NCBI GenBank assembly: GCA_963851445.1
Contig: CAWKPH010000001.1
Span: forward strand, 159,943 to 223,942
DNA: 64,000 bases
Direction: 5' to 3'
Origin: an uncultured bacterium
GTDB lineage: Bacteria; Patescibacteriota; Minisyncoccia; Phycocordibacterales; Phycocordibacteraceae
A program made the position numbers and the translations under genes. Below the pieces are notes generated by a model, which was given only the letters and a program-made list of their open reading frames with translations, had not been told where the DNA came from and did no database searches. Each line of letters opens with the position of its first letter. The first letter of the stretch is position 1. Of this stretch, positions 22,116 to 55,272 are shown one piece after another.

Positions 22116-22189
22116 CCATCCTTAGCTCAGTTGGTTAGAGCATCGAGCTTATACCTCGAGGGTCCCTGGTTCGAGTCCAGGAGGATGGA
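22116..22189 (+). tRNA. tRNA with anticodon UAU (would read AUA; tRNA-Ile-like), no encoded CCA
   Basis: Acceptor CCATCCT/AGGATGG, D-arm GCTCAGTTGGTTAGAGC, anticodon stem TCGAG/CTCGA with loop CTTATAC, T-arm CCTGGTTCGAGTCCAGG. Confidence 0.7.
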
Positions 22190-22233
22190 CCGATTATGCT
22201 ATGCTTGGGTGCATATAATAAAGTATAGAGATT

Positions 22234-25064: not shown

Positions 25065-25476
25065 GGGGGTGACTGGTTTTGACGGTCTGCTCTTTGAAAG
25101 ACGTGCGACGCGATGGAAGCTTGTTGACCATCTAAATCTCGCAAGCACCTAAACTTGCTAACAATTCTGTTGCAAGCGCAAAGCTTTCACCTTTCCAGAT
25201 GAAAGATTTTGCGTTCGCGTACGTAGGAGCTCGAGCGTAAGCTCGCTTCGCCTATGCGACGTTCACTAACCCCGGGTTCCTATAGCCGGATTAGTGGGCG
25301 GAATCTTCTATAGGATCGGTAGTCGTGTGCCCACACGTACTGTCTAAACTACGGGCGTAGATGTACAGGGTTTCGTTTCCGTTTTTACCTGTACATTGAA
25401 ACTTCAATTGAAACTATGCGTCGTAGATTCGCTTTCAAAGCCGGATTCGGACGGGAGTTCAACCTCCCCACCTCCA
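25065..25476 (+). ncRNA. ssrA: tmRNA (SsrA)
   Basis: 5' GGGGGUGACUGGUUUUGACGG and 3' GGACGGGAGUUCAACCUCCCCACCUCCA-A-CCG form the tRNA-Ala-like acceptor with the G3:U70 wobble pair. Tag ORF starts about 92 nt in (GCU AAC ...) and stops with UAA at 25238-25240. Lies directly after smpB. Confidence 0.75.
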
Positions 25477-25483
25477 CCGATAT

Positions 25484-37038: not shown

Positions 37039-37068
37039 ACTAAAAAGCGCTCCGAAGAGCTTGCCTCT

Positions 37069-37097
37069 ACCATATCAGGTAAGAAATACGCTGTCAA
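37069..37097 (-). promoter_or_regulatory. Candidate sigma70-type promoter for rpsN-...-secY
   Basis: Minus strand: TTGACA (37092-37097), 17-nt spacer, TATGGT (37069-37074), about 30 nt upstream of the rpsN ATG. Confidence 0.4.
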
Positions 37098-37107
37098 ACA
37101 AAAGAAA

Positions 37108-37137
37108 AGGCGCTACCGGCTATTGCCAGTGGCGCCT
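37108..37137 (-). terminator. Hairpin terminator for the inserted gene 37120-37680
   Basis: AGGCGCTAC...GTGGCGCCT stem enclosing the stop codon. On the minus strand it is followed by TTTTCTTTTGTTT. Confidence 0.45.
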
Positions 37138-37680
37138 GAAAAAGGAATCCCAGAGAGAGAGGGCTTGGGGGCTCACGACGAGAGCGAATACGCAGCCCTT
37201 ACTCCAGTATCCGAGTGCAAGATGTCCCGTGCTATTGCCAATGACTGGGTGGTACTTGATTTTGCCAGTCTTCACGCGTAAGTAGGACGTTTTGAGGGCG
37301 CAAATTCCGGGCCGATCCGCAGCTTGTTGGAATTGTCCTGCAAATGAGAGGAGTTCCTTCTCATCAGCAGGCCTCCATGTCCTGTAAACCGAAGCGCCCA
37401 TGCTGACAGGATCCATCATTGGCAGAAGCGCGACGCGGATCACTGCGCTGCCCGTTTTACGAGGCAGCTCTTCGTAGTCTCCCGGAATATAGTCTGGATC
37501 CATTGCCACGTTGGGGGCAATCTCGTGACCTGACTTACTGTAATCCACGAGAACCAGGTACTCGTGGGGACTATGTCGCCGGTCACGACGATAGGACTGA
37601 TGTTCACATCTTGTCAGCTCGAGGAGTGGGGCCACTATCACAAAAACTAGCAAGATCGAGGCGAGAATTCGATTTCTCAT
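37120..37680 (-). CDS. Secreted/membrane-anchored hypothetical protein inserted in the spc operon
   Basis: Signal peptide/TM (ILASILLVFVIVAPLL). Has a GHLALGYWSKGCV segment (possible His/Cys catalytic pair). 186 aa. Confidence 0.5.
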   Translation of the reverse strand: MRNRILASILLVFVIVAPLLELTRCEHQSYRRDRRHSPHEYLVLVDYSKSGHEIAPNVAMDPDYIPGDYEELPRKTGSAVIRVALLPMMDPVSMGASVYRTWRPADEKELLSFAGQFQQAADRPGICALKTSYLRVKTGKIKYHPVIGNSTGHLALGYWSKGCVFALVVSPQALSLWDSFFRRHWQ

Positions 37681-37850
37681 TATTTGCCCTTCCCTATAGG
37701 GGTTTTGTTCGTTCTAAACGCATAATACTGTCAATTCTAAAATTGTCAAAATAGCTTTCCGCCCAATTCTCCGCGTGATAGAAGACGTTAGAACCTATTT
37801 ATGAAAATAAATCGAAGCACGTATAAGACTGATTGTCTGGATTAGTTGAT

Positions 37851-38405
37851 CTAACGATTTTTCCCTCTAAAGAATGAAGTAGGGAAGAATCTAACAATTG
37901 GAGCAACAAGAGCTGCTGCATCACGTTTCGCATGTCCTTCATGATCTTTGTGCACGATCGGATTCTTTTCATGCGCCAGTTCCTCAACTGTTGTATGTGC
38001 AGCTGCTTCATAGTCTAAAAGGGCCTTTTTTGCTCTTTCCCATTCAGCCACTGCTGATTGATATTTTCCATTTCCGGCTCTAAGTGGACTATCCAGAATA
38101 CTTGTGTCCCCCCCAACTCTAAGCCCTTGTTGCAGTTCCAATGCTCTTCGAGCATCCTCTTCTACTTTGACGAGCATTTCATGCGTTTCAAGAGTTCGCT
38201 CGGCAGATGCATCTTTCAATCTGGTTAAAATAGTTTCGGCAGCTGCGCGATCCTCCGCGGCTATAGATTTTGCTTCGAAGTCGAGTAGGCCAAGTTTCTT
38301 TATTTTTTCTTCTTCAGCGGCTATACCTGCGCTCTCTGAAGACTGATTAGCCTGTTCGCTGGAATTACCTTCTGCTGATTTTTTTGTAGGGTCTTCGAGT
38401 GACAT
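37851..38405 (-). CDS. Acidic coiled-coil hypothetical protein
   Basis: 184 aa, Glu/Ala-rich predicted helices. No known motif. Confidence 0.45.
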   Translation of the reverse strand: MSLEDPTKKSAEGNSSEQANQSSESAGIAAEEEKIKKLGLLDFEAKSIAAEDRAAAETILTRLKDASAERTLETHEMLVKVEEDARRALELQQGLRVGGDTSILDSPLRAGNGKYQSAVAEWERAKKALLDYEAAAHTTVEELAHEKNPIVHKDHEGHAKRDAAALVAPIVRFFPTSFFRGKNR

Positions 38406-38429
38406 AAATAAATTTTAGTCTCGGATTTC

Positions 38430-38830
38430 GCTAATAGATATGGCATTCTTCACATCCCTAATCCTACCATGCAAGGCATTAGAATTAGAAAAGGTAGAGC
38501 AAAGGACAAGTTCGGAGCACTTTTAAATCGTCCTGTGATAACGGGCTCCGTCTCGTGTATGAGGTTAGGATCTGCTTTGTATGAAACAGCGTGGGGCCGG
38601 CACACGCTTGGTGTACCGGCCCCAGAGATGAGATGACCCCTAGGTCAAGTCCAGGACGCCGCGGCGTCCATGAAAATCAACTTCGGCTACAAAGCAGGCT
38701 GTGCACTAAGTCCTATTCCTATCGGACCCGGATTTTGACCTCGAAAAGTCTAATCCACCTGTTCTGCTCTCACCTCTAAGGAACCCGCTAAAGACAAGTG
38801 TATCAGATTCTTAAGCGTATGGTCAAATTT
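38430..38830 (-). other. Non-coding GC-hairpin-rich region (candidate structured RNA)
   Basis: Perfect or near-perfect hairpins GGGGCCGGCACAC-GCTTG-GTGTACCGGCCCC (38593-38623) and palindrome GGACGCCGCGGCGTCC. Long-range GGTCAA...TTGACC pairing. No convincing ORF. Confidence 0.25.
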
Positions 38831-38918
38831 TCTTCCCAATGTCGTCTCCGACATTCTGGGGGTATAAAAGAAGCCTTCGATCACTTGGACCAAAGACTTC
38901 AACAATTCTTACTGGGAG

Positions 38919-39176
38919 TTACCCCGCGACTACGCTAAGAAAACCTGTTTGTGTAGGCAGTGGCAGATCGCGCATAAAGCTTAAGGCTTTGGGCAATCTT
39001 TCGATTATGCCGCTGCTAACCCTCAAACTTACCGAGGTATTAATAATATTTCTCGCAACTTTCGTCGCCTCAATATCATCTTCAGCAGAAAAACCGTGAG
39101 TGGTTTCGTCCCAGAAAACATCATCACCCTTACCGGACAGATAAGGTGCTCGATACACCAAACGATAACGCCCCAT
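38919..39176 (-). CDS. Possible small hydrophilic protein
   Basis: 85-aa ORF from ATG (MGRYRLVYRAPYLSGKGDDVFWDETTHG...) with a G-rich stretch upstream. Weak evidence. Confidence 0.25.
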   Translation of the reverse strand: MGRYRLVYRAPYLSGKGDDVFWDETTHGFSAEDDIEATKVARNIINTSVSLRVSSGIIERLPKALSFMRDLPLPTQTGFLSVVAG

Positions 39177-39312
39177 ACTAAAGCCCCCCAATTTATTTAT
39201 GCTAGAGCCCTCTCCCTAGACACTTCTATTAACACGATAGTCTTATTTATCAAGTCGGTCAATGTTCAATAAATACAAACGCGTTCGTAGAGTACGTTGT
39301 AGAGAATTTGTT

Positions 39313-42734: not shown

Positions 42735-43079
42735 TTACTTCTTAGCCGCAGGTGTAGCTTTTGCCGCTTTTGCCGCAGTAATTTCAGCTTGCTGGCGCTT
42801 CTGCTCGAGGTCCTTCTGCATCTTTCCGCCGTGACGGACGAATTTCTTCGTAGGAGAGAATTCTCCCAAACGGTGACCGACCATATCTTCCGTTACTAGC
42901 ACCTCTACATGCTGCTTGCCGTTATGAACGCCAAAGGTGAACCCGACGAATTCAGGCGCTATTTGGCTACGGCGCGCCCACGTCTTAATAACCCCGGAGG
43001 AACCAGGGCGACCAGCGGCACCAACCTTCTTCATGAGCTTTAGGTCGATGAAAGGGCCTTTCTTGAGTGATCGGGACAT
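42735..43079 (-). CDS. rpsS: 30S ribosomal protein S19 (Lys/Ala-rich C-terminal tail)
   Basis: Start at internal Met [15 protein letters not shown]... The 21-aa upstream extension in the track ORF is not S19-like. Confidence 0.85.
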
Positions 43080-43112
43080 GCGAATTAAAAACCCGCGGCG
43101 CGGGGATATACA

Positions 43113-43142
43113 AAATCTATAGGAAATCAGCTGTAGTGTCAA
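43113..43142 (-). promoter_or_regulatory. Candidate sigma70-type promoter for rpsS-rplV-rpsC...
   Basis: Minus strand: TTGACA (43137-43142), 18-nt spacer, TAGATT (43113-43118). Leader contains CCCGCG..CGCGGG hairpin plus U5 directly before the ATG. Confidence 0.4.
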
Positions 43143-43159
43143 ATTGAGGCCGTATATCC

Positions 43160-43993
43160 ATGTCGCGGGTGAGGTACAATGACTCTATGAAGCACACGGT
43201 ACGGGATCTCATCTTTGTCATCATTCTGCTCCTTCTTATGGTGGGTGGTTTAGTTTGGTACATTTTCTATAAGCCACACGCTGCCCTTCCTGTAACGGCC
43301 ACCTCTACAAGCCCTTTTTCGGCAGCTACCACGCCAAGCACCTCGCAAGGCCTCCCTCAGCACATCATCAATAACTCCCAGTATTACGCCATCGACATGC
43401 AATACCCTTCATCAACGCCTCTAGCACAAACGGCCGGAGCGAGTGCTGACGCGGCGGCGGTGGCAGTAATGCAGTCGTTCAGCCAGAATAGTGTCGACAC
43501 CTTCATCAAGGATGGCGATTTTGCCGATATGACTCCGCAAGTGCTTAAGGACATGGGTGGGCAGCAAGAAACGATGAGTGACTCGTATCAGTTGTATACC
43601 TCACCTACAACCATTTCCTACGTATTCACCGTTACCCAGGATACGGGAGGGGCACATCCTAACAGCTACTACCAAACCTTCACCTTTGACTCGAAGACGG
43701 GGCAACAGCTCATGCTCTCTGATCTCTTCATGCCTGGTAGCGACTATCTCTCTACCCTTAGCTCACTTTCACGGTCGGCACTCCTTTCGCAGGAGGGTGC
43801 CAATGCTCAATCTGAATTGATTGACCAAGGTACGCAGGCTAGCAGCACTAGTTTTGCAAACTTCGCTCTCGACGGTGCTAATTTTGATATTTTCTTTGCA
43901 CCTTACCAAGTAGCTTCCTATGCGCTTGGCCCGCAGACAGTACAAATCCCACTTACTCAGCTTACGAGCATTCTCAATACGGAGTATCAATAA
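43160..43993 (+). CDS. Membrane-anchored DUF4163/DUF3298 (RsiV/PdaC C-terminal-like) domain protein
   Basis: N-terminal TM ([21 protein letters not shown]). [19 protein letters not shown] matches the DUF3298 GGAHP signature. 277 aa. Opposite strand to the flanking ribosomal genes. Confidence 0.6.
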
Positions 43994-44116
43994 GAAAGTG
44001 GAAGCGACTCGAATGAATAGGCGCCCCATCTATTAAACAGAGAGACTGTTGCACAGCCTCTGTAAGGAAGCCGAATATCTGGTACTCTAAGGTCAGGTTT
44101 CAGGAGGGTCTTTGTT

Positions 44117-44758
44117 ATGGGCATTGTTCAAATAGCGCTCGAAAAGGCGAGGCACGCAAGCAAGGAAAGGGTACGGGCTGAGGCGAACGAAAAAGCTGCC
44201 TGGGACGCACTGCGGGCTAGACTCAGGGCTGGCGGAACAACGGGGGATTATCTTTGGGACTTCCTTTTCGTTGGATATGGGCCACGCAGCTCCCAAGCCG
44301 AAGTCGATGAACACTACAAGCGCTACCTTGCAGTCAACGAAAGGCTAAAGGGACAGGCGGGCCAGCTGGTTCTCTACTTTCGTTACGAGAAACGCCTTGA
44401 GTCCTGCCACTTCACGCACAGCAGCTATAGAACTGACAACTGCTGGTATCTGGCTGTGCTCAGTGGTGAGCAGCTCATTTGTCGGCTTCAGCCAGATATG
44501 AAGATGGGCTGCTATCTTCCCGTGAAGTGTTACTGCAACCAGCTGCATCAGCCCATCATCACCAAAGGACGCCTTCGCGAAATACCGATCAGAGGTTGGT
44601 TCGATGAATCATCCCTTGTTATAGGGGACGAGGCAGTTATCGCAAGGCTCAAGCAAGACGGCCTCTGGGATATTACGCGGGGGCCGGGTTTTAGGGCCTT
44701 CCTCGATGAGTTGGGACATTTCGACTTGACTCCCGAGCCAGAAGAAGAGACGGCGTAG
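44117..44758 (+). CDS. Orphan cytoplasmic hypothetical protein (locally higher GC)
   Basis: 213 aa. GGAGGG RBS 8 nt upstream. Cys-rich middle (CHFTHSSYRTDNCWY...CYLPVKCYCNQLHQ). About 55% GC, above the neighbours. Confidence 0.5.
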   Translation: MGIVQIALEKARHASKERVRAEANEKAAWDALRARLRAGGTTGDYLWDFLFVGYGPRSSQAEVDEHYKRYLAVNERLKGQAGQLVLYFRYEKRLESCHFTHSSYRTDNCWYLAVLSGEQLICRLQPDMKMGCYLPVKCYCNQLHQPIITKGRLREIPIRGWFDESSLVIGDEAVIARLKQDGLWDITRGPGFRAFLDELGHFDLTPEPEEETA

Positions 44759-44936
44759 GACGTGCGTCCAAGGGTGCTTTGCAAATGCGAGGCACTCTTT
44801 TTCTTTTCTCCCTGTTCTCGATATTCAACGTTCTGCTTCCAAGTAGGCTAATGAAGGACACGCAAAAGTCCCAAGCTCCAGGACCTTATTACGTACTCAA
44901 CATCATAGAGGTAGGAACGAATGCTAGAATCTCTAC

Positions 44937-45314
44937 ATGGATTCATCATTGAACTCCCGCAAAACGCACCCCATATTAAAACCAATAGCCCTTGTTTGTT
45001 TATCTCTCCATGGCTTGGTACTTGTTGGAGTAGTAGTACTCTGTTTGTTTAATATAGTACTGATATTACTTGCAGCATTTTTCACAGTGGGATTGGCACT
45101 TCTCATAATACTGGGGATCATATTTGTTATTGGCTACAGCTTCGTCATAAGTTTAAAGTATTATAAGCGCTCGAATTTCTCTAAATCGATCCTTGTGTCG
45201 GTATTAGTAATATTTGCAGTCGCTGAAGCTGGGTTCTATACCATTAGACAAATAGGTCTGCCGTCTCTAGAGCAACTTATACCCGGGCCGGGCAGTTGGA
45301 TGAAAGTTGGGTGA
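44937..45314 (+). CDS. Small polytopic membrane protein
   Basis: 125 aa with three or four predicted TM helices. AT-rich. Confidence 0.5.
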   Translation: MDSSLNSRKTHPILKPIALVCLSLHGLVLVGVVVLCLFNIVLILLAAFFTVGLALLIILGIIFVIGYSFVISLKYYKRSNFSKSILVSVLVIFAVAEAGFYTIRQIGLPSLEQLIPGPGSWMKVG

Positions 45315-45383
45315 GATAGTTTTTGAAACAGATTTCACTGGACGAAGCGCGGCGATGCGCACACTGCAAGCTTAACGAGAGGT

Positions 45384-45416
45384 CCTGCTCAAGAGCAGGT
45401 ACCATTACTATTTTTA
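45384..45416 (+). terminator. Hairpin plus T-tract terminator closing the inserted plus-strand gene block
   Basis: CCTGCTC-AAGA-GCAGG followed by TACCATTACTATTTTT. Confidence 0.4.
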
Positions 45417-45426
45417 TTATAGGCTC

Positions 45427-46269
45427 TTAGCGCTTCTTCCCCACCTTACGTCTCGAAACGATGAAAACATTTGAATACTTCTTTGGAGTACGAGTCTTCT
45501 GCCCTTTACCCGTTGGCTTGCCCCACATGCTCTTGGCGCGACGAAGTCCTCTTCCCTGGCGTCCTTCACCACCACCGTGTGGATGGTCGACAGGATTCAT
45601 CGCCGTACCACGAACGGTAGGACGAATACCTTTCCAACGTGAGCGACCTGCCTTGCCGTAATTAACAAGACGCTGCTCTTCGTTACTCACCGTGCCTACT
45701 GATGCGTAGCAAAGATCAGAGACGCGACGTACTTCGCTTGAAGGAAGCTTTATCTGTGCATAGCCAGCGTCGTGAGCGACAACTTCTGCATAGTTACCTG
45801 CTGAGCGAGCGAGGCGAGCACCTGCGCCAAGCTTAAGCTCAATATTGTAGACAAAGGTGCCTGAAGGAATTTTACCGAGCGGCATGCGATTCCCAGGACG
45901 TACCGGTACATTCTCGCCAACGAGGAAGGTGTCGCCTACTTTCATTTCCTTAGTTGCAAGAACGTAGCGGCGTTCGCCATCGGCGTATACAACGCGTGCA
46001 ATGAATCCTGTGCGAAATGGATCGTATTCAATTGTTTCAACGCGTGCGGGAATATCGCGCTTGTTGTATGAGAAATCGACATCGCGTAGACGCTTCTTAT
46101 GACCACCACCCTGATGACGAGTTGTGATGCGACCTGCGTTGTTACGACCTGCGCGCGCCTTCTTCGAAAGCATAAGCTGCTTCATCGGCTTGTCGCCTGA
46201 AAGCACACCGCGATAGGTCACGGTGGTCATGCTACGACGGCTCTTGGAAGTTGGTTTGTAGGATTTCAT
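45427..46269 (-). CDS. rplB: 50S ribosomal protein L2
   Basis: ...DHPHGGGEGR... motif, 280 aa. Confidence 0.9.
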   Translation of the reverse strand: MKSYKPTSKSRRSMTTVTYRGVLSGDKPMKQLMLSKKARAGRNNAGRITTRHQGGGHKKRLRDVDFSYNKRDIPARVETIEYDPFRTGFIARVVYADGERRYVLATKEMKVGDTFLVGENVPVRPGNRMPLGKIPSGTFVYNIELKLGAGARLARSAGNYAEVVAHDAGYAQIKLPSSEVRRVSDLCYASVGTVSNEEQRLVNYGKAGRSRWKGIRPTVRGTAMNPVDHPHGGGEGRQGRGLRRAKSMWGKPTGKGQKTRTPKKYSNVFIVSRRKVGKKR

Positions 46270-48085: not shown

Positions 48086-48299
48086 AAAAAGTAAAATGCG
48101 CTCAATGGCGCAAGATTTCAGTAGAAATCCTTACCATTGGTCCGGCCGTCAGCCGTACGTAGCGTTTCAGGTACTCTACACTAGTCTTTTAAAGGACGCA
48201 ACGATGAGTCCGACGTTAGCTTAATTTGTATAAAATAGTTCGGCCCTCGCCCAGCCGAAGCTGAGCGAGGAACCGTGTTGATGTTAGCCCATTTAAGGG

Positions 48300-48560
48300 C
48301 AACGATCGCCGCTGGTCAGGTGATGACGACGTCCGCCGCCGCGCCGCTGACCGAGCCGACGGCGCGCATGGCGCCGACCTCCTGGTGATCCGCGACGGTG
48401 AGATGGCCCTTGGCGGCGGCGATGTTCAGGATTTGCCGGGAATGCGGCGACGGGTGAAACCCGTGCCGGGCTGGGTTTTGGTGCATTATCATCCTCCAGA
48501 GGAATGGTCGCCAGCGGGTTGCCGACGACCTTCGTAGTCTATACCCACTTTTTTCCAAAT
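48300..48560. other. 260-bp GC-rich (about 68%) segment without an intact ORF; probable foreign or degraded coding fragment
   Basis: Sharp GC step relative to about 50% flanks. Protein-like fragments appear in two frames (...GADLLVIRDGEMALGGGDVQDLPG... plus strand, ...ILNIAAAKGHLTVADHQEVGAMRAVG... minus strand) but no start-to-stop gene. Confidence 0.4.
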
Positions 48561-49084
48561 CAAGAAGTTATGCACTGTTAGATAAATGGATTCCAACCTA
48601 ATAACAGGTTGTAGATTTTGACTTGAGAATGGGTGCTAAGCTATGAATAGGTCACGCATTGGCTGACCTTGTAATGGAGAGATTGCCATGATGAAGTTTT
48701 TTACCCTTCGGGGAAAGACCGCAGCCTTGGAGACACATTTCATCGAGGGGAGGTGATCCTTCATATCTCGTAAGCCGCACCGGCGCACTTACGCACCCGC
48801 AGGCCCGATGCATCCGCGTCGGGCCTAATGATTTTCATGCTATATTCCTTAAGTCAGCACAGGTCTGACAGAAAGGAATTGTTCCCATGATCGATGGCAT
48901 CACCCGTGAAGCCCCGTGGCCTACGGACGGCCTATGGTCACCGGATGGCGGCTCGGAGATCTGAAGTCTAGGGACCCAGACTCAATTTTCAAGAGCTACC
49001 CATGGCGCTCCAGACTATCGGAACGCCATTTTAATTTAGTGGATGTATTTATTTAAATGAATGACCCTGAGCACGAAGCCTGGG

Positions 49085-49411
49085 TCATTTAGTCCTGAGG
49101 GAACTTGTTTGCAAAGCGTAATGCCTGAGCCCAAGAGACTTTGCTCGCTCTCCTGGAAGCGGTTTTTTAGCAAACCGACCGCCTGTGTGACCATTCGGTT
49201 CACGCCAAACTTCACGCCATTTTCCTGTTCGCTTATCTACCCAACCGTGGCGCCACTTAGCCATGTGTTTACTGATCTTGAGAGGTGTATTGTCCTCTTC
49301 ATAAACATAGCCAGCAAAGAGAGCTCGTTGGGCATTGTGAACTCTATCGACCTCTTCTCTGGCTCCTGGTGGTAGACGCCAACCAGGAGGCTTAGAACCC
49401 GGTGGTCGCAT
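49085..49411 (-). CDS. Orphan small basic protein with a perfect Shine-Dalgarno sequence; weak resemblance to tyrosine-recombinase N-terminal arm-binding domains
   Basis: ATG at 49409-49411, preceded 5 nt upstream by GAGGAGGAG. 108 aa. KRTGKWREVWREPNGHTGGRFAKK segment resembles integrase N-terminal [K/R]RG..W.V.W..P.G motifs. Identification is low-confidence. Confidence 0.45.
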   Translation of the reverse strand: MRPPGSKPPGWRLPPGAREEVDRVHNAQRALFAGYVYEEDNTPLKISKHMAKWRHGWVDKRTGKWREVWREPNGHTGGRFAKKPLPGERAKSLGLRHYALQTSSLRTK

Positions 49412-49465
49412 ATCACTCCTCCTCAAAAGATCAGAGTTTCAGAATACTCTTCAGAGAGAACAAAA

Positions 49466-49495
49466 GCAAAACCGCTCGTGCACGAGCGGTTTTGC
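49466..49495. terminator. Bidirectional terminator (perfect 15-bp palindrome) after rpsJ
   Basis: GCAAAACCGCTCGTG|CACGAGCGGTTTTGC with A-tract and T-tract flanks. Confidence 0.6.
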
Positions 49496-49517
49496 TTTTG
49501 TTGATTTATTCTTCGAG

Positions 49518-49929
49518 CTACACCATCTTCACATCAATCGTAACGCCTGAAGGAAGATTGAGATTCGTGAGAGCCTCAATAACCTTTGCGTGATGGCGAA
49601 AGAATGTCGATGAGACGCTTGTGGATGCGCATTTCGAACTGTTCGCGTGAGTCCTTGTGGATGAATGTCGAACGGTTCACGGTCCAGCGCTTTATCTCAG
49701 TTGGAAGCGGAACGGGACCGACAATTTTCGCATCGAAGCGATTAGCGGTATCCATGATCTGCTTCACCGAGAGATCAAGAATCTTGTGCTCATAGGCGCG
49801 TACGCGAATGCGAAGCTTTGGTTCTGCGCAGGCTCAGCTTCTTTTTTCGAAGCTCTTTTGGCAGGCGTTTAGCGGCTGCTTTTTTACCGCAGCTTTCGCT
49901 ACAGTCTTTTTTGCGGTTGAGTTTGCCAT
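49518..49929 (-). pseudogene. rpsJ: 30S ribosomal protein S10, interrupted by at least three 1-nt indels
   Basis: Lys/Ala-rich N-extension from ATG 49927-49929 (MANSTAKKTVAKAAVKKQPLN...). Core ...AQNQ(K)[39 protein letters not shown]...[11 protein letters not shown] is recovered only by switching frames at an A-run (ccaaag). C-terminal [23 protein letters not shown] is in yet another frame. Confidence 0.75.
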
Positions 49930-49965
49930 ATACGATTCAAAGATCCAGTTTCAGTTACAAATTGA

Positions 49966-51170
49966 TTATGCGACGATCTTGGTTACAACACCAGCACCGA
50001 CGGTCTTGCCGCCTTCACGAACTGCGAAGCGAGTGTTGTCCTCAAGTGCGATAGGAGCAATGAGCTTTACCTTGAAGGTAACAGTGTCGCCTGGCATAAC
50101 CATTTCCTTTCCTTCAGGAAGAGTAACTTCGCCGGTCACGTCCGTCGTGCGGATGTAGAACTGAGGCTTGTACCCAGAGAAGAATGGAGTGTGACGACCG
50201 CCTTCGTCCTTAGTGAGAATGTATACTTCAGCTTCGAATTCAGTGTGAGGAGTCACTGAACCAGTCTTTGCAAGAACCTGACCGCGGTGTACATCTTCTT
50301 TCTTCGTACCGCGGAGAAGGATACCAGCGTTGTCGCCAGCCTGACCTTCCTGGAGCTGCTTGTTGAACATTTCGATACCAGTAACAGTCGTCTTTGCGGT
50401 TGGCTGAATACCGACGATTTCGACTTCTTCACCAACCTTGACGATACCGCGCTCGATACGGCCGGTGACAACCGTTCCGCGACCTTCAATAGAGAAGATG
50501 TCTTCGATAGGCATAAGGAATGGCTTGTCGAGTCTCGCGCTCTGGGTTGGGAAGTAGGTGTCCATTGTGTCAACGAGTTCCTTAACCTTTAGAGCCCAAG
50601 GATCGTCAGCTGAAGTTAGCTTCAAGAGCCTTAAGACCTGAGCCGCGGATAACTGGCGTAGCTGCGCCATCAAAGCCCTGCTTGGTGAGAAGTTCACGGA
50701 TTTCCTCTTCAACGAGGTCGACCATGTCCTGGTCATCAACCATGTCTACCTTGTTAAGGAAGACGATGAGTCTTAGGCACACCAACTTGCTTTGCAAGAA
50801 GGATGTGCTCACGAGTCTGAGGCATCGCGCCGTCAGTCGCAGCAACCACGAGCACTGCGCCGTCCATCTGAGCGGCACCAGTAATCATGTTCTTGATGTA
50901 GTCGGCGTGGCCTGGAGCATCAATGTGCGCGTAGTGACGATTCGGCGTCTCGTACTCCGAGTGGTGGAGGGCGATAGTAATACCACGAGCCTTTTCTTCA
51001 GGCGCGTTGTCGATATTATCGACCTTCTCGGCGCGGGCCTTGTAGCCAGCATCCTTGTTGAGATTGAGGACGTTGAGGATAGCAGCGGTGAGCGTGGTCT
51101 TGCCATGGTCAACGTGACCGATGGTGCCTACGTTCATGTGCGGCTTGCTGCGATCGAATGCTTCTGCCAT
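49966..51170 (-). pseudogene. tuf: Elongation factor Tu, split over three reading frames (at least two frameshifts)
   Basis: G-domain [27 protein letters not shown] (50754-51170). Middle ...[27 protein letters not shown]... in a second frame (50606-50878). Domains II-III ...[27 protein letters not shown]... in a third (49966-50739). Confidence 0.85.
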
Positions 51171-51336
51171 ACGTTTGTAAAGTTACAATAAAAGTTACTA
51201 ATTCGGAGTATTTCCCCGCGAGACGCTATCTCCTACCCCTGTATTGCTACAGATAGCAAAGAAACGCCGTGACACGCGTTGTAGTAAAAATACACGGCCG
51301 TTCGCCAAAGGTCAAGCATTTTGTTGCTCCAACGGG

Positions 51337-52740
51337 CTAAGGATGAGTGTGACCTCCCCCCGCTTGTTGAGCACCACCTCTGGCAGAGGCTCTCTTGGGA
51401 GCAGTTGTGCCTCCTCCACCTCCCTTGAATACCGGTTTACCACCGTTGAATATTGAAAGAAGGTCATTTGCTATTGATTTGCCACCTTCCCAGTTATTTC
51501 TCGAAAGCGCTCTAAAAAGTTCCCACGCCATAAAATCCAGAAAACCAACCCCAAGGAAATTGACGGCCGTCATTGAAAAACCAGCACTTACTCCATAGAA
51601 TTGCGCCGCTGATGTCACTACTGGTGCCACCCCTAACACTTGCTCAAGACCGGCGAGTCCTATGAGCGTCAACCCCACGCCACCTATCGCTAAGCCCCCG
51701 ACACCAAGGTTTCCAGCTATCCTTTGTCCTAAGGTTTTTTCTTTACGCTCCTTGCCACTTTTCTTTGCTTTCTCTTTTGAGTCACCCCCGGTAGTTTCTT
51801 TTTTCACTGCATTTTCTTCTTCCTTATTTTTCTCAGCATTTTTTTCAGCTTCCTTAGACTCGTTCCCATTCTTAACTTTCTCAAGATTTGCGTGTAGCTC
51901 CGCATAGCGTGCCGCTATTTCGGGCTTCATCTGCTCGGAGTGAATTTCATTGACTCGCACACTACGCAGAGCTTCTTGACGACTCATTTCTTCTTTAAGT
52001 GTCTCGTGCTTGTCCTTATAGGCAGCAGCTTTCTCTGGATGGGTTTTCGCGAAGGCGCCCCATTGCTCTTCCTGAACCTTCACGCGTTCCTCGTTACTTT
52101 TCGCTTCCCCTGCAAGTCGGACGTCGCGTTCTATGACTCCCTTAAGCACAGGATCTTTATCAGGATTGCTACGTATGCGCGTTCGCTCGGGGTCAGGAGG
52201 TACGAGGCCTCTGGCTTTCATTGTGTTCCACTCCTCCGCAGGGCCCTTTTTCTTTTCCTCTCTTCCAACTGGATAATTATTACGAACACGCGGGGGACTC
52301 CATGAACCGATGAGCTGTGGCTCGCCCCTGAGATCTTCAAGGTGCATCACCTTCTCTTCTGGTTTCTTCGCTTCTTCTACTACAGGCGGTGTAACGACCT
52401 CGGCATGTAAATTTTTAGCTATTGCTGAACTCTTTGCTCGTTGTGCTGCCATACTGTCTTTCATTTCCTGATACATATTTTCATACGCATGGGCTTTTTC
52501 AGGGTACGCTTTTATAAAAGCATCTGTCTGCGTCTTTATTTGCGCATCAGTTGCAAACGCGAAAGAATTTATCACCGCTCGTATGATCGGATCGTCTTCG
52601 GCATAGTAGGGGTGATCCATGTACGTCTTCGTTCTTTCAGGATCTCTTTCAATTCCATACTCATCTCTTTTTTTTCTATTCCAATCTTCTGCTGGAGTGG
52701 GCGATACTGATTCGATTATGCGTGGAGGTTTCTCTGACAT
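51337..52740 (-). CDS. Repeat-containing Lys/Glu-rich protein with C-terminal Gly-zipper membrane segment, inserted between tuf and fusA
   Basis: 467 aa. Two ~110-aa internal repeats (..AEDWNRKKRDEYGIERDPERTKTYMDHP..YPEKAHAYENMYQEMKD.. and ..AEEWNTMKARGLVPPDPERTRIRSNP..HPEKAAAYKDKHETLKEEM..). KE-rich linker. GNLGVGGLAIGGVGLTLIGLAGL hydrophobic Gly-rich C-terminal region. Confidence 0.55.
   Translation of the reverse strand: MSEKPPRIIESVSPTPAEDWNRKKRDEYGIERDPERTKTYMDHPYYAEDDPIIRAVINSFAFATDAQIKTQTDAFIKAYPEKAHAYENMYQEMKDSMAAQRAKSSAIAKNLHAEVVTPPVVEEAKKPEEKVMHLEDLRGEPQLIGSWSPPRVRNNYPVGREEKKKGPAEEWNTMKARGLVPPDPERTRIRSNPDKDPVLKGVIERDVRLAGEAKSNEERVKVQEEQWGAFAKTHPEKAAAYKDKHETLKEEMSRQEALRSVRVNEIHSEQMKPEIAARYAELHANLEKVKNGNESKEAEKNAEKNKEEENAVKKETTGGDSKEKAKKSGKERKEKTLGQRIAGNLGVGGLAIGGVGLTLIGLAGLEQVLGVAPVVTSAAQFYGVSAGFSMTAVNFLGVGFLDFMAWELFRALSRNNWEGGKSIANDLLSIFNGGKPVFKGGGGGTTAPKRASARGGAQQAGGGHTHP

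Positions 52741-53110: not shown

Positions 53111-55272
<2,162 letters not shown>

Follow-up and report, generated by a model that had tools for sequence, protein, structure and literature searches.

A recurrent break between rplB and rpsS in the ribosomal protein genes of Paceibacteria, with a promoter and a hairpin leader before rpsS

Introduction

Ribosomal protein operons of the S10-spc type contain internal promoters and ribosomal leaders, as in L4-dependent attenuation at the S10 leader of E. coli, and candidate ribosomal protein leaders have been catalogued (PMC7247131). Here, we analyze the junction between rplB and rpsS in a 64,000-nucleotide stretch of DNA (the window) from an uncultured Patescibacteria bacterium (contig CAWKPH010000001.1), in which three genes on the opposite strand separate the two ribosomal protein genes. 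The locus resembles the S10-spc systems in that a promoter and a structured leader, consisting of a hairpin and a U-tract, precede a block of ribosomal protein genes. It differs from them in that the break lies inside the normal S10 operon, at rplB-rpsS, is class-wide in Paceibacteria and is a hot spot for unrelated genes. The leader also differs from known ones because it is a minimal hairpin of 5-7 base pairs (bp) at the predicted 5' end of the transcript, lacks a Shine-Dalgarno site and matches no Rfam family. The survey of ribosomal leaders has no entry for S19 from this group (PMC7247131), and in the literature searched we found no description of the rplB-rpsS break or of the rpsS leader in Patescibacteria.

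Integration hot spots and plasticity zones share with this gap fixed core flanks and a content that varies among related genomes. By contrast, we detected neither a tRNA nor an integrase at the gap and no repeats around it, its flanks are ribosomal protein genes and one of its occupants, a DUF3298 protein, appears to be stably inherited.

Two described protein families are close to this occupant, the product of the first open reading frame (ORF1) in the gap. MPT64 (Rv1980c) and the DUF3298 family, including BF2082 (PDB 3S5T), are like ORF1 exported or extracytoplasmic and have no catalytic domain attached, while ORF1 differs in its uncleaved N-terminal anchor, its Ser/Thr/Pro-rich linker, its fixed place beside rpsS and its occurrence in a Patescibacteria genome. 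RsiV, the anti-sigma-V factor and lysozyme receptor of Firmicutes, has an extracellular pair of DUF4163 and DUF3298 behind a single membrane span, as ORF1 would have if its DUF4163 match, which is below the cut-off, is genuine; however, ORF1 has no cytoplasmic domain for binding sigma-V, no sigV gene nearby and a score far below the cut-off of the RsiV model. MPT64 does not bind lysozyme and lysozyme binding is not general in the DUF3298 family (PMC5014341); therefore, it cannot be assumed for ORF1.

An earlier note on this DNA had read the three genes as horizontally acquired cargo and possibly a small envelope-sensing module. We consider it likely that the locus is a lineage-typical break in the ribosomal string, and not a recent three-gene insertion, and that it holds one old and two unrelated young genes.

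Results

The gap between rplB and rpsS is open in most sampled Paceibacteria

In the window, rplB and rpsS are 2.35 kb apart and three plus-strand ORFs lie between them (Table 1), in agreement with the 2.3 kb and the three plus-strand genes of the earlier note. We take ATG 43079 as the start of rpsS, where the S19 domain and the canonical N-terminus begin; a longer ORF from TTG 43142 was rejected as an artefact on the same grounds. Genes on the opposite strand that interrupt rplB-rpsS are unusual among bacteria in general. The window is part of a contig of 687,765 bp. Its rplB shares 74-84% identity with that of genomes under the labels Parcubacteria, Paceibacteria or Kaiserbacteria, and for comparison we used the best 80 relatives by rplB similarity from one-genome-per-species contigs and placed the flanking ribosomal genes by tblastn.

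Table 1. Features of the rplB-rpsS gap and its flanks, in window coordinates
Feature	Position	Strand	Remarks
rplB (L2)	45427-46269	-	Pfam Ribosomal_L2_N and Ribosomal_L2_C; closes the upstream block rplC-rplD-rplW-rplB
Hairpin CCTGCT-CAAG-AGCAGG	45383-45402		between convergent ORF3 and rplB; weak candidate terminator
ORF3	44937-45314	+	125-residue hydrophobic ORFan
Extended -10 box TGcTAGAAT	44922-44930	+	6 nucleotides (nt) before ORF3 ATG; leaderless-type start
Intrinsic terminator of ORF1-ORF2 unit	44770-44809	+	13-bp stem, then TTTTTCTTTTCT; from terminator scan
ORF2	44117-44758	+	213-residue soluble protein of a small uncharacterised family
Shine-Dalgarno site AGGAGGG	44102-44108	+	8 nt before ORF2 ATG
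ORF1	opens 43160, likely start 43187, ends 43993	+	DUF4163-DUF3298 protein (MPT64-like), membrane-anchored
-10 box TACAAT	43175-43180	+	6 nt before ATG 43187; candidate leaderless ORF1 promoter, predicted from sequence
rpsS promoter TTGACA-17-TAGATT	43142-43114	-	from promoter scan, 10/12 matches
rpsS leader	43080-43104	-	hairpin CCCGC-GCC-GCGGG (43104-43092), TTTTTAATTCGC, ATG; no Shine-Dalgarno site
rpsS (S19)	42735-43079	-	Pfam Ribosomal_S19, 4.3e-33; heads the block rpsS-rplV-rpsC-rplP-rpmC-rpsQ-rplN-rplX-rplE

The rplB-rpsS gap is open in most Paceibacteria sampled and is not specific to the window: of 64 loci, 84% have more than 300 nt at this junction, with a median of 943 nt and a maximum of 7,350 nt. 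Two further junctions are often open, rplE-rpsN (more than 300 nt in 62% of 42 loci, median 659 nt) and rpsJ-rplC (33% of 58 loci, median 154 nt), while each of the 16 other junctions (26-78 loci each) exceeds this length in 0-3% and has a median between -76 and 193 nt.

The genes in the rplB-rpsS gap vary widely. Clustering of 139 gap ORFs (136 from relatives and three from the window) left 92 as singletons. The recurrent groups are a DUF3298 protein (10 sequences including that of the window, on the opposite strand every time), a DgkA-like membrane protein (seven) and an IS200/RAYT-like transposase (six), and relatives also carry genes for a 2OG-Fe(II) oxygenase, NUDIX and HIT proteins, purC/purE and rplJ. 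Apart from DUF3298 and the 2OG-Fe(II) oxygenase, which have Pfam support, these names were read by eye from sequence.

The other two junctions are also open in the window. The rplE-rpsN gap (37039-39312, about 2.3 kb) contains ORFs of 186 and 184 residues, and the rpsJ-rplC gap (48086-49575, about 1.5 kb) contains an ORF of 113 residues with a GAGGAGG Shine-Dalgarno site (49085-49426) and one of 80 residues with 64% GC (48316-48558); none of the four has a Pfam match. In one relative (L082), a ParE-toxin gene and a small upstream ORF (193-668) lie just beyond rplE, at or near the rplE-rpsN joint; the listed part of this locus did not show rpsN.

A promoter and a hairpin leader precede rpsS across the class

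The near-consensus promoter that the earlier note had proposed for rpsS is present in the sequence and would be the gene's own, except that its spacer has 17 nt and not 18. The promoter element was found in 62 of 70 rpsS-carrying sequences (68 fetched loci, two duplicates, plus the window), and its conserved form across the class is TTGACA-17-TAnnnT. Promoter and hairpin are kept even in genomes with just 82-156 nt between the two genes (L007, L017, L018, L023, L043 and L059). Since the promoter-hairpin leader is class-wide and includes such gaps without insertion, the idea that rpsS had "re-acquired" a promoter does not hold; on comparison of these sequences the promoter appears to be ancestral.

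Across the loci, the leader has the same layout: a GC-rich hairpin of 5-7 bp that starts 5-9 nt past the -10 box, a T-rich run and the ATG 5-27 nt further on, with no Shine-Dalgarno site. By a strict definition, a hairpin with a T-tail follows the -10 box by 3-13 nt in 49 of 60 promoter-bearing loci versus 0.94 expected from dinucleotide shuffles. The stems comprise 26 distinct sequences (e.g. CCCGC/GCGGG, AAGCTC/GAGCTT, CGGCC/GGCCG, GCGCC/GGCGC and AAGCG/CGCTT), and each of five stem positions is occupied by three to four types of Watson-Crick pair. The leader thus appears to be conserved in structure and not in sequence. Two variants were seen: in L005 and L015 about 100-130 nt, including additional GC-rich sequence, separate the promoter-hairpin element from the start codon of rpsS, and L084 has a 36-nt insertion in the leader hairpin itself. 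Rfam gave no match at the gathering threshold in the window, and at E values up to 10 the region 42950-43250 yielded nothing but snoRNA noise.

In the window, the hairpin lies about 9 nt after the -10 box and formally fits the pattern of an intrinsic terminator. We considered that it might terminate rplB or the upstream unit. However, in many loci (L017, L027, L031, L057, L059, L062, L072 and L079) a second, larger terminator stands immediately upstream of the -35 box, and the hairpin persists beside a divergent upstream neighbour, as in the window; therefore, it is not simply the terminator of the upstream unit. The hairpin most likely acts on the rpsS transcript, as a stabiliser of its 5' end or as a promoter-proximal attenuator. 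In a strand test, the leader stems contained 16 G-U versus 9 A-C wobble pairs, which is a weak contrast.

In the window, rpsN (-35 box at 37097) and tuf (-35 box at 51315) have the same promoter-hairpin-T layout before them, and across all loci it was found about 45 times before rpsS, about eight times before rpsN and twice before rplC. The region upstream of tuf (51263-51315) contains a promoter, the hairpin AACGCGTGTCACGGCGTT and a T-rich tail.

ORF1 is a membrane-anchored DUF3298 protein that shares its place with homologues in related genomes

ORF1 was described in the earlier note as a membrane-anchored DUF4163-DUF3298 protein with a GGAHP motif, and this description stands for the anchor, DUF3298 and the motif. 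It matches Pfam DUF3298 (PF11738) at 4.7e-12 and 47.1 bits, above the cut-off of 24.1 bits, whereas the match to PdaC/DUF4163 (PF13739; 4.2e-5) remains below the cut-off (25.0 versus 29.1 bits) while spanning positions 3-95 of the 95 in the profile. We found 96 homologues of ORF1, several of which carry a precomputed PdaC/DUF4163 match. In the TGGAHP motif, T162, G164, A165, H166 and P167 are invariant in 13 aligned sequences. Among proteins in the PDB, MPT64 (2hhi, 4e-7) and 3s5t (1.2e-6) match ORF1 along its last 130 residues, in which the GG(A/T)H motif is shared, and ORF1 is related to, and not a member of, the Rv3036c-type esterases (NCBIfam NF043047, 62.7 bits, below the cut-off of 200).

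The N-termini of 12 aligned homologues match M10 of the long ORF, which makes ATG 43187 the probable start of ORF1. A single hydrophobic segment (residues 9-39 of the long ORF) is followed by the Ser/Thr/Pro-rich linker and then the domain, and DUF3298 ends at residue 265 of 277; with Pfam, we found no C-terminal polysaccharide deacetylase (NodB) domain of the kind that a PdaC-type deacetylase has. ORF1 is probably best described as an extracytoplasmic ligand-binding protein with the fold of MPT64 and the RsiV ectodomain. A role as an RsiV-type anti-sigma factor or envelope sensor, as previously suggested, was rejected. First, the cytoplasmic tail has 6-15 residues (about six if M10 is the start), and this is too short to leave room for a sigma-binding domain, which in RsiV takes up several tens of residues before the membrane span. 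Second, the match to the NCBIfam RsiV model (NF052658) has 16.1 bits and E = 0.0055, while the equivalog cut-off is 250. Third, there is no sigma factor gene near ORF1, the neighbours of which are rpsS, ORF2, ORF3 and rplB, and no sigma-factor Pfam domain among the neighbours of its homologues at L081-L085 and L091.

Homologues with 33-53% identity to ORF1 occupy the same slot, head-to-head with rpsS, in L001-L006, L010, L013-L015, L081-L085 and L091, and pairwise ORF1 identities correlate with the identities of the adjacent L2 proteins (Mantel r = 0.34, p about 0.003). Because about 15 relatives share this slot and orientation and ORF1 has diverged in step with L2, ORF1 would be an old, fast-evolving resident of the gap in the clade of the window. 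A more distant homologue, labelled Adlerbacteria, is at an unrelated locus.

ORF2 belongs to a small uncharacterised family found at unrelated loci

A word-indexed protein search with ORF2 returned only ORF2 itself, and to this extent it is the orphan that the earlier note took it for; by contrast, an exhaustive phmmer search of 1.84 billion representatives gave 13 remote homologues of 134-349 residues (E = 1e-16 to 6e-4). ORF2 is thus not a strict orphan and, judging from these homologues, is a real gene of a small family. G39, T42, G43, D48, G82, L115, L120 and G170 are invariant in the alignment, in which no stretch of 7-10 columns is conserved. The proposed Cys-rich core is not a family trait: the six cysteines are not conserved in the homologues, except for a partly conserved one in a CxLP motif.

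With the 14-sequence alignment, AlphaFold2 gave a confident model of ORF2 (predicted local distance difference test (pLDDT) 83.5, predicted template modelling score (pTM) 0.73), whereas a single-sequence run reached a pLDDT of 36. In the model, an N-terminal helix of 37 residues and two further helices are followed by a core rich in beta structure and by helices at the C-terminus. Foldseek found no fold match for it in the PDB (best E = 0.24) or in BFVD (best E = 0.03). ORF2 also gave nothing with Pfam, PHROGs, PADLOC, a PDB profile search or tblastn against phage genomes, and it has no tblastn match in the 80 relatives.

The ribosome-binding site proposed for ORF2 is in place (Table 1). Shine-Dalgarno cores are scarce in the window, with a 4-mer before seven of 71 ORFs and a 5-mer before three, and none of the 19 ribosomal protein gene starts inspected has such a site. 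ORF2 homologues in L086, L087 and L089 also have a Shine-Dalgarno site. As to composition, the GC content of ORF2 (54.4%) is higher than the window mean of 48.9%, as claimed, but lies within the 49-55% of the flanking ribosomal genes. In L088, the homologue has 58.7% GC versus 50-52% for its three nearest neighbours of at least 77 residues.

Four homologues of ORF2 could be placed on contigs, and they are at unrelated loci with neighbours such as rlmH/TspO/aminotransferase/YceG genes, gyrA with an intein or an EVE-domain gene; none of the four has a DUF3298 neighbour. The gyrA gene beside the homologue in L088 (1-2719) carries its intein as a Pfam Intein_splicing match inside DNA_topoisoIV. 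Because ORF2 is patchily distributed at unrelated loci, richer in GC than its neighbours here and in L088 and preceded by a Shine-Dalgarno site in a genome almost without them, we suggest that it is horizontally mobile and was probably acquired horizontally.

ORF3 is a hydrophobic ORFan, and the three genes are unlikely to form a unit

ORF3 has 40.5% GC and about three predicted hydrophobic segments (residues 12-76 and 80-104), as expected from its earlier description as an AT-rich polytopic membrane protein. A search of 5.8 billion proteins returned only ORF3 itself, and there was no Pfam or NCBIfam match and no tblastn match in the 80 relatives. ORF3 is preceded by an extended -10 box at leaderless distance from its ATG (Table 1). 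A TAnnnT box lies 6-9 nt before the ATG of many genes in the window, which suggests that leaderless transcripts may be widespread in this genome. For both ORF2 and ORF3, the annotated frame has the best codon-usage score; these scores are near zero, while those of ribosomal and other long genes are 0.3-0.7. On balance, we lean towards ORF3 being a real, lineage-specific small membrane protein.

There is no plus-strand terminator between ORF1 and ORF2, and ORF2 is probably co-transcribed with ORF1. The strong terminator of the block follows ORF2: it folds at -20.4 kcal/mol (z = -3.75), and none of 200 shuffles was as stable. The hairpin between ORF3 and rplB, with which the three-gene block had been thought to end, is weak (-12.9 kcal/mol and z = -1.7 on the minus strand, with a plus-strand T-run about 10 nt past the stem) and was not flagged by the terminator scan.

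In the rplB-rpsS gap, we found only short chance repeats and no flanking ones, no integrase or transposase Pfam match in the ORFs and no tRNA nearby. ORF2 and ORF3 are absent from the relatives, while ORF1 is syntenic in about 15 relatives, and the block is thus mixed. The three genes were never found together elsewhere, and the relatives with a syntenic ORF1 have neither ORF2 nor ORF3. The occurrence of the same genes at unrelated loci, which the earlier note had named as evidence against its reading, was observed for ORF2 and for a distant ORF1 homologue. Thus, the proposal of horizontally acquired cargo is retained for ORF2, on the basis of its unrelated loci, GC content and Shine-Dalgarno site, and is abandoned for a single three-gene unit, in which ORF1 would be the old resident.

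Other features of the window

The assembly contains frameshifts in tuf, fusA and rpsJ. Two ORFs (50754-51170 and 49966-50739) together make up the tuf gene, fusA has fallen into several pieces (the broken essential genes lie within 49576-51170 and 53111-54345) and rpsJ is frameshifted near 49585, with its C-terminus carrying on in another frame. These breaks are most likely indel errors of the assembly. A 467-residue ORF without a real Pfam match lies between the fusA fragments and tuf (51337-52740). The window also contains a tmRNA gene (25065-25479; Rfam RF00023, 86.5 bits) and a tRNA-Ile gene with the anticodon TAT (UAU) at 22116-22191. The UAU anticodon is uncommon in bacteria, in which AUA is usually read by a modified CAU anticodon.

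Discussion

Based on these comparisons, we propose a model in which the ribosomal string of Paceibacteria would be cut into autonomous blocks, at rplB-rpsS and, less often, at rplE-rpsN and rpsJ-rplC. In this model, rpsS would head its own transcription unit, with a sigma-70-type promoter, a GC hairpin about 8 nt past the -10 box, a U-rich tract and a start codon without a Shine-Dalgarno site. Because the two blocks would be transcriptionally independent, the DNA between them would be nearly neutral for ribosomal gene expression, and lineages would, therefore, have gathered different genes there. ORF1, with a surface-exposed product, would be an old occupant that has been inherited vertically, head-to-head with rpsS, while the stretch from its 3' end to rplB would turn over fast. 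Here, this stretch would hold ORF2, a putatively mobile gene of a small Patescibacteria family that would use a Shine-Dalgarno site of its own for translation and is followed by a strong terminator; ORF3 would be expressed from its own leaderless-type promoter. More tentatively, and with slightly less than even confidence, we suggest that the conserved break with its promoter, hairpin and U-tract is an undescribed class-wide feature of Paceibacteria, in which insulated transcription units that do not depend on Shine-Dalgarno sites have been cut anew from the S10-spc string, with joints that serve as preferred landing sites for new genes such as ORF2.

Several observations weigh against this interpretation. 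The leader hairpin of the window is no more stable than shuffled sequence (-8 kcal/mol, z = -0.6), such that its support is comparative only. Alignment of 42 rpsS leaders with MAFFT and RNAalifold gave no consensus because it set the two main types of stem in different registers; for the covariation counts we used our own structure-anchored script. The promoters, the starts, the joint transcript of ORF1 with ORF2 and the function of the hairpin are predictions from sequence. The relatives were sampled via rplB similarity only, and the pattern is described for Paceibacteria. For ORF1, the Mantel correlation is modest, and the near relatives L007, L008, L009 and L012 have no DUF3298 gene; therefore, loss or replacement also occurs. 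Finally, given the frameshifts in tuf, fusA and rpsJ, the ORF boundaries carry some risk, and assembly indels could affect those of ORF2 and ORF3.

The rpsS hairpin and T-tract could instead be an autoregulatory leader of the ribosomal proteins, to which a protein of the operon would bind so as to cause termination or block initiation, and the junction would then be a regulatory node and not a neutral landing pad. The element is conserved, covaries and lies directly upstream of rpsS, it has counterparts before rpsN and tuf in the window and before rpsN and rplC in relatives, and ribosomal leaders that work through a terminator have been described (PMC7247131, PMC3616713). However, the stem has only 5-7 bp, no loop sequence or bulge is conserved and the leader, at about 25-35 nt, is too short for alternative structures; Rfam gave no match even at E = 10, and tuf, whose product is not a ribosomal protein, has the element before it as well. 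We therefore regard autoregulation as unlikely.

Our model attributes ORF2 and ORF3 to genuine, young genes in the spacer. Alternatively, one or both of them could be decaying remnants or chance ORFs in fast-changing DNA, and only ORF1 would then matter. The codon-usage scores near zero, the lack of any homologue of ORF3 in the proteins searched, the many singleton ORFs in the spacers of relatives and the indels in the assembly are all in line with such an origin. For ORF2, it is difficult to reconcile with 13 homologues of similar length, invariant residues, a confident AlphaFold2 model, a strong Shine-Dalgarno site and a strong terminator. For ORF3, the native-type extended -10 box 6 nt before the ATG and the coherent membrane-protein profile argue against it, and in both ORFs the annotated frame scores best. 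Overall, this origin seems improbable to us.

The proposal that the 2.3-kb block is a single acquired cargo and a small envelope-sensing module, in which a sensor resembling RsiV would be joined by a cytoplasmic partner and a membrane protein, is in accordance with the shared strand of the three genes opposite to the operon, the RsiV ectodomain fold family of ORF1 and the composition and translation signal of ORF2, which are atypical for the genome, but is very hard to sustain given that the genes never co-occur elsewhere and ORF1 is syntenic without the other two, that ORF2 homologues lie among unrelated housekeeping genes, that ORF1 has a short tail, a low RsiV score and no sigma gene in the gap here or in syntenic relatives, that flanking repeats and an integrase were not found and that a terminator stands between ORF2 and ORF3.

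The three-gene block itself is thus not a new system, and its cargo is ordinary or uncharacterised; the break and its conserved leader are more interesting than the cargo. The block of 16 ribosomal proteins serves as a syntenic marker when uncultured bacteria are placed in phylogenies. Its members in Paceibacteria are regularly separated at rplB-rpsS by up to 7 kb of unrelated genes, and this affects contig-based extraction of the marker and checks for chimeras. Taken together, the promoter-hairpin leader, the scarcity of Shine-Dalgarno sites and the position of -10 boxes at 6-9 nt from start codons provide a testable picture of how transcription and translation are initiated in an uncultured group. 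Because of its fixed place beside the rpsS promoter, the DUF3298 protein may be made in large amounts, and it would be a candidate for study in these presumed episymbionts.

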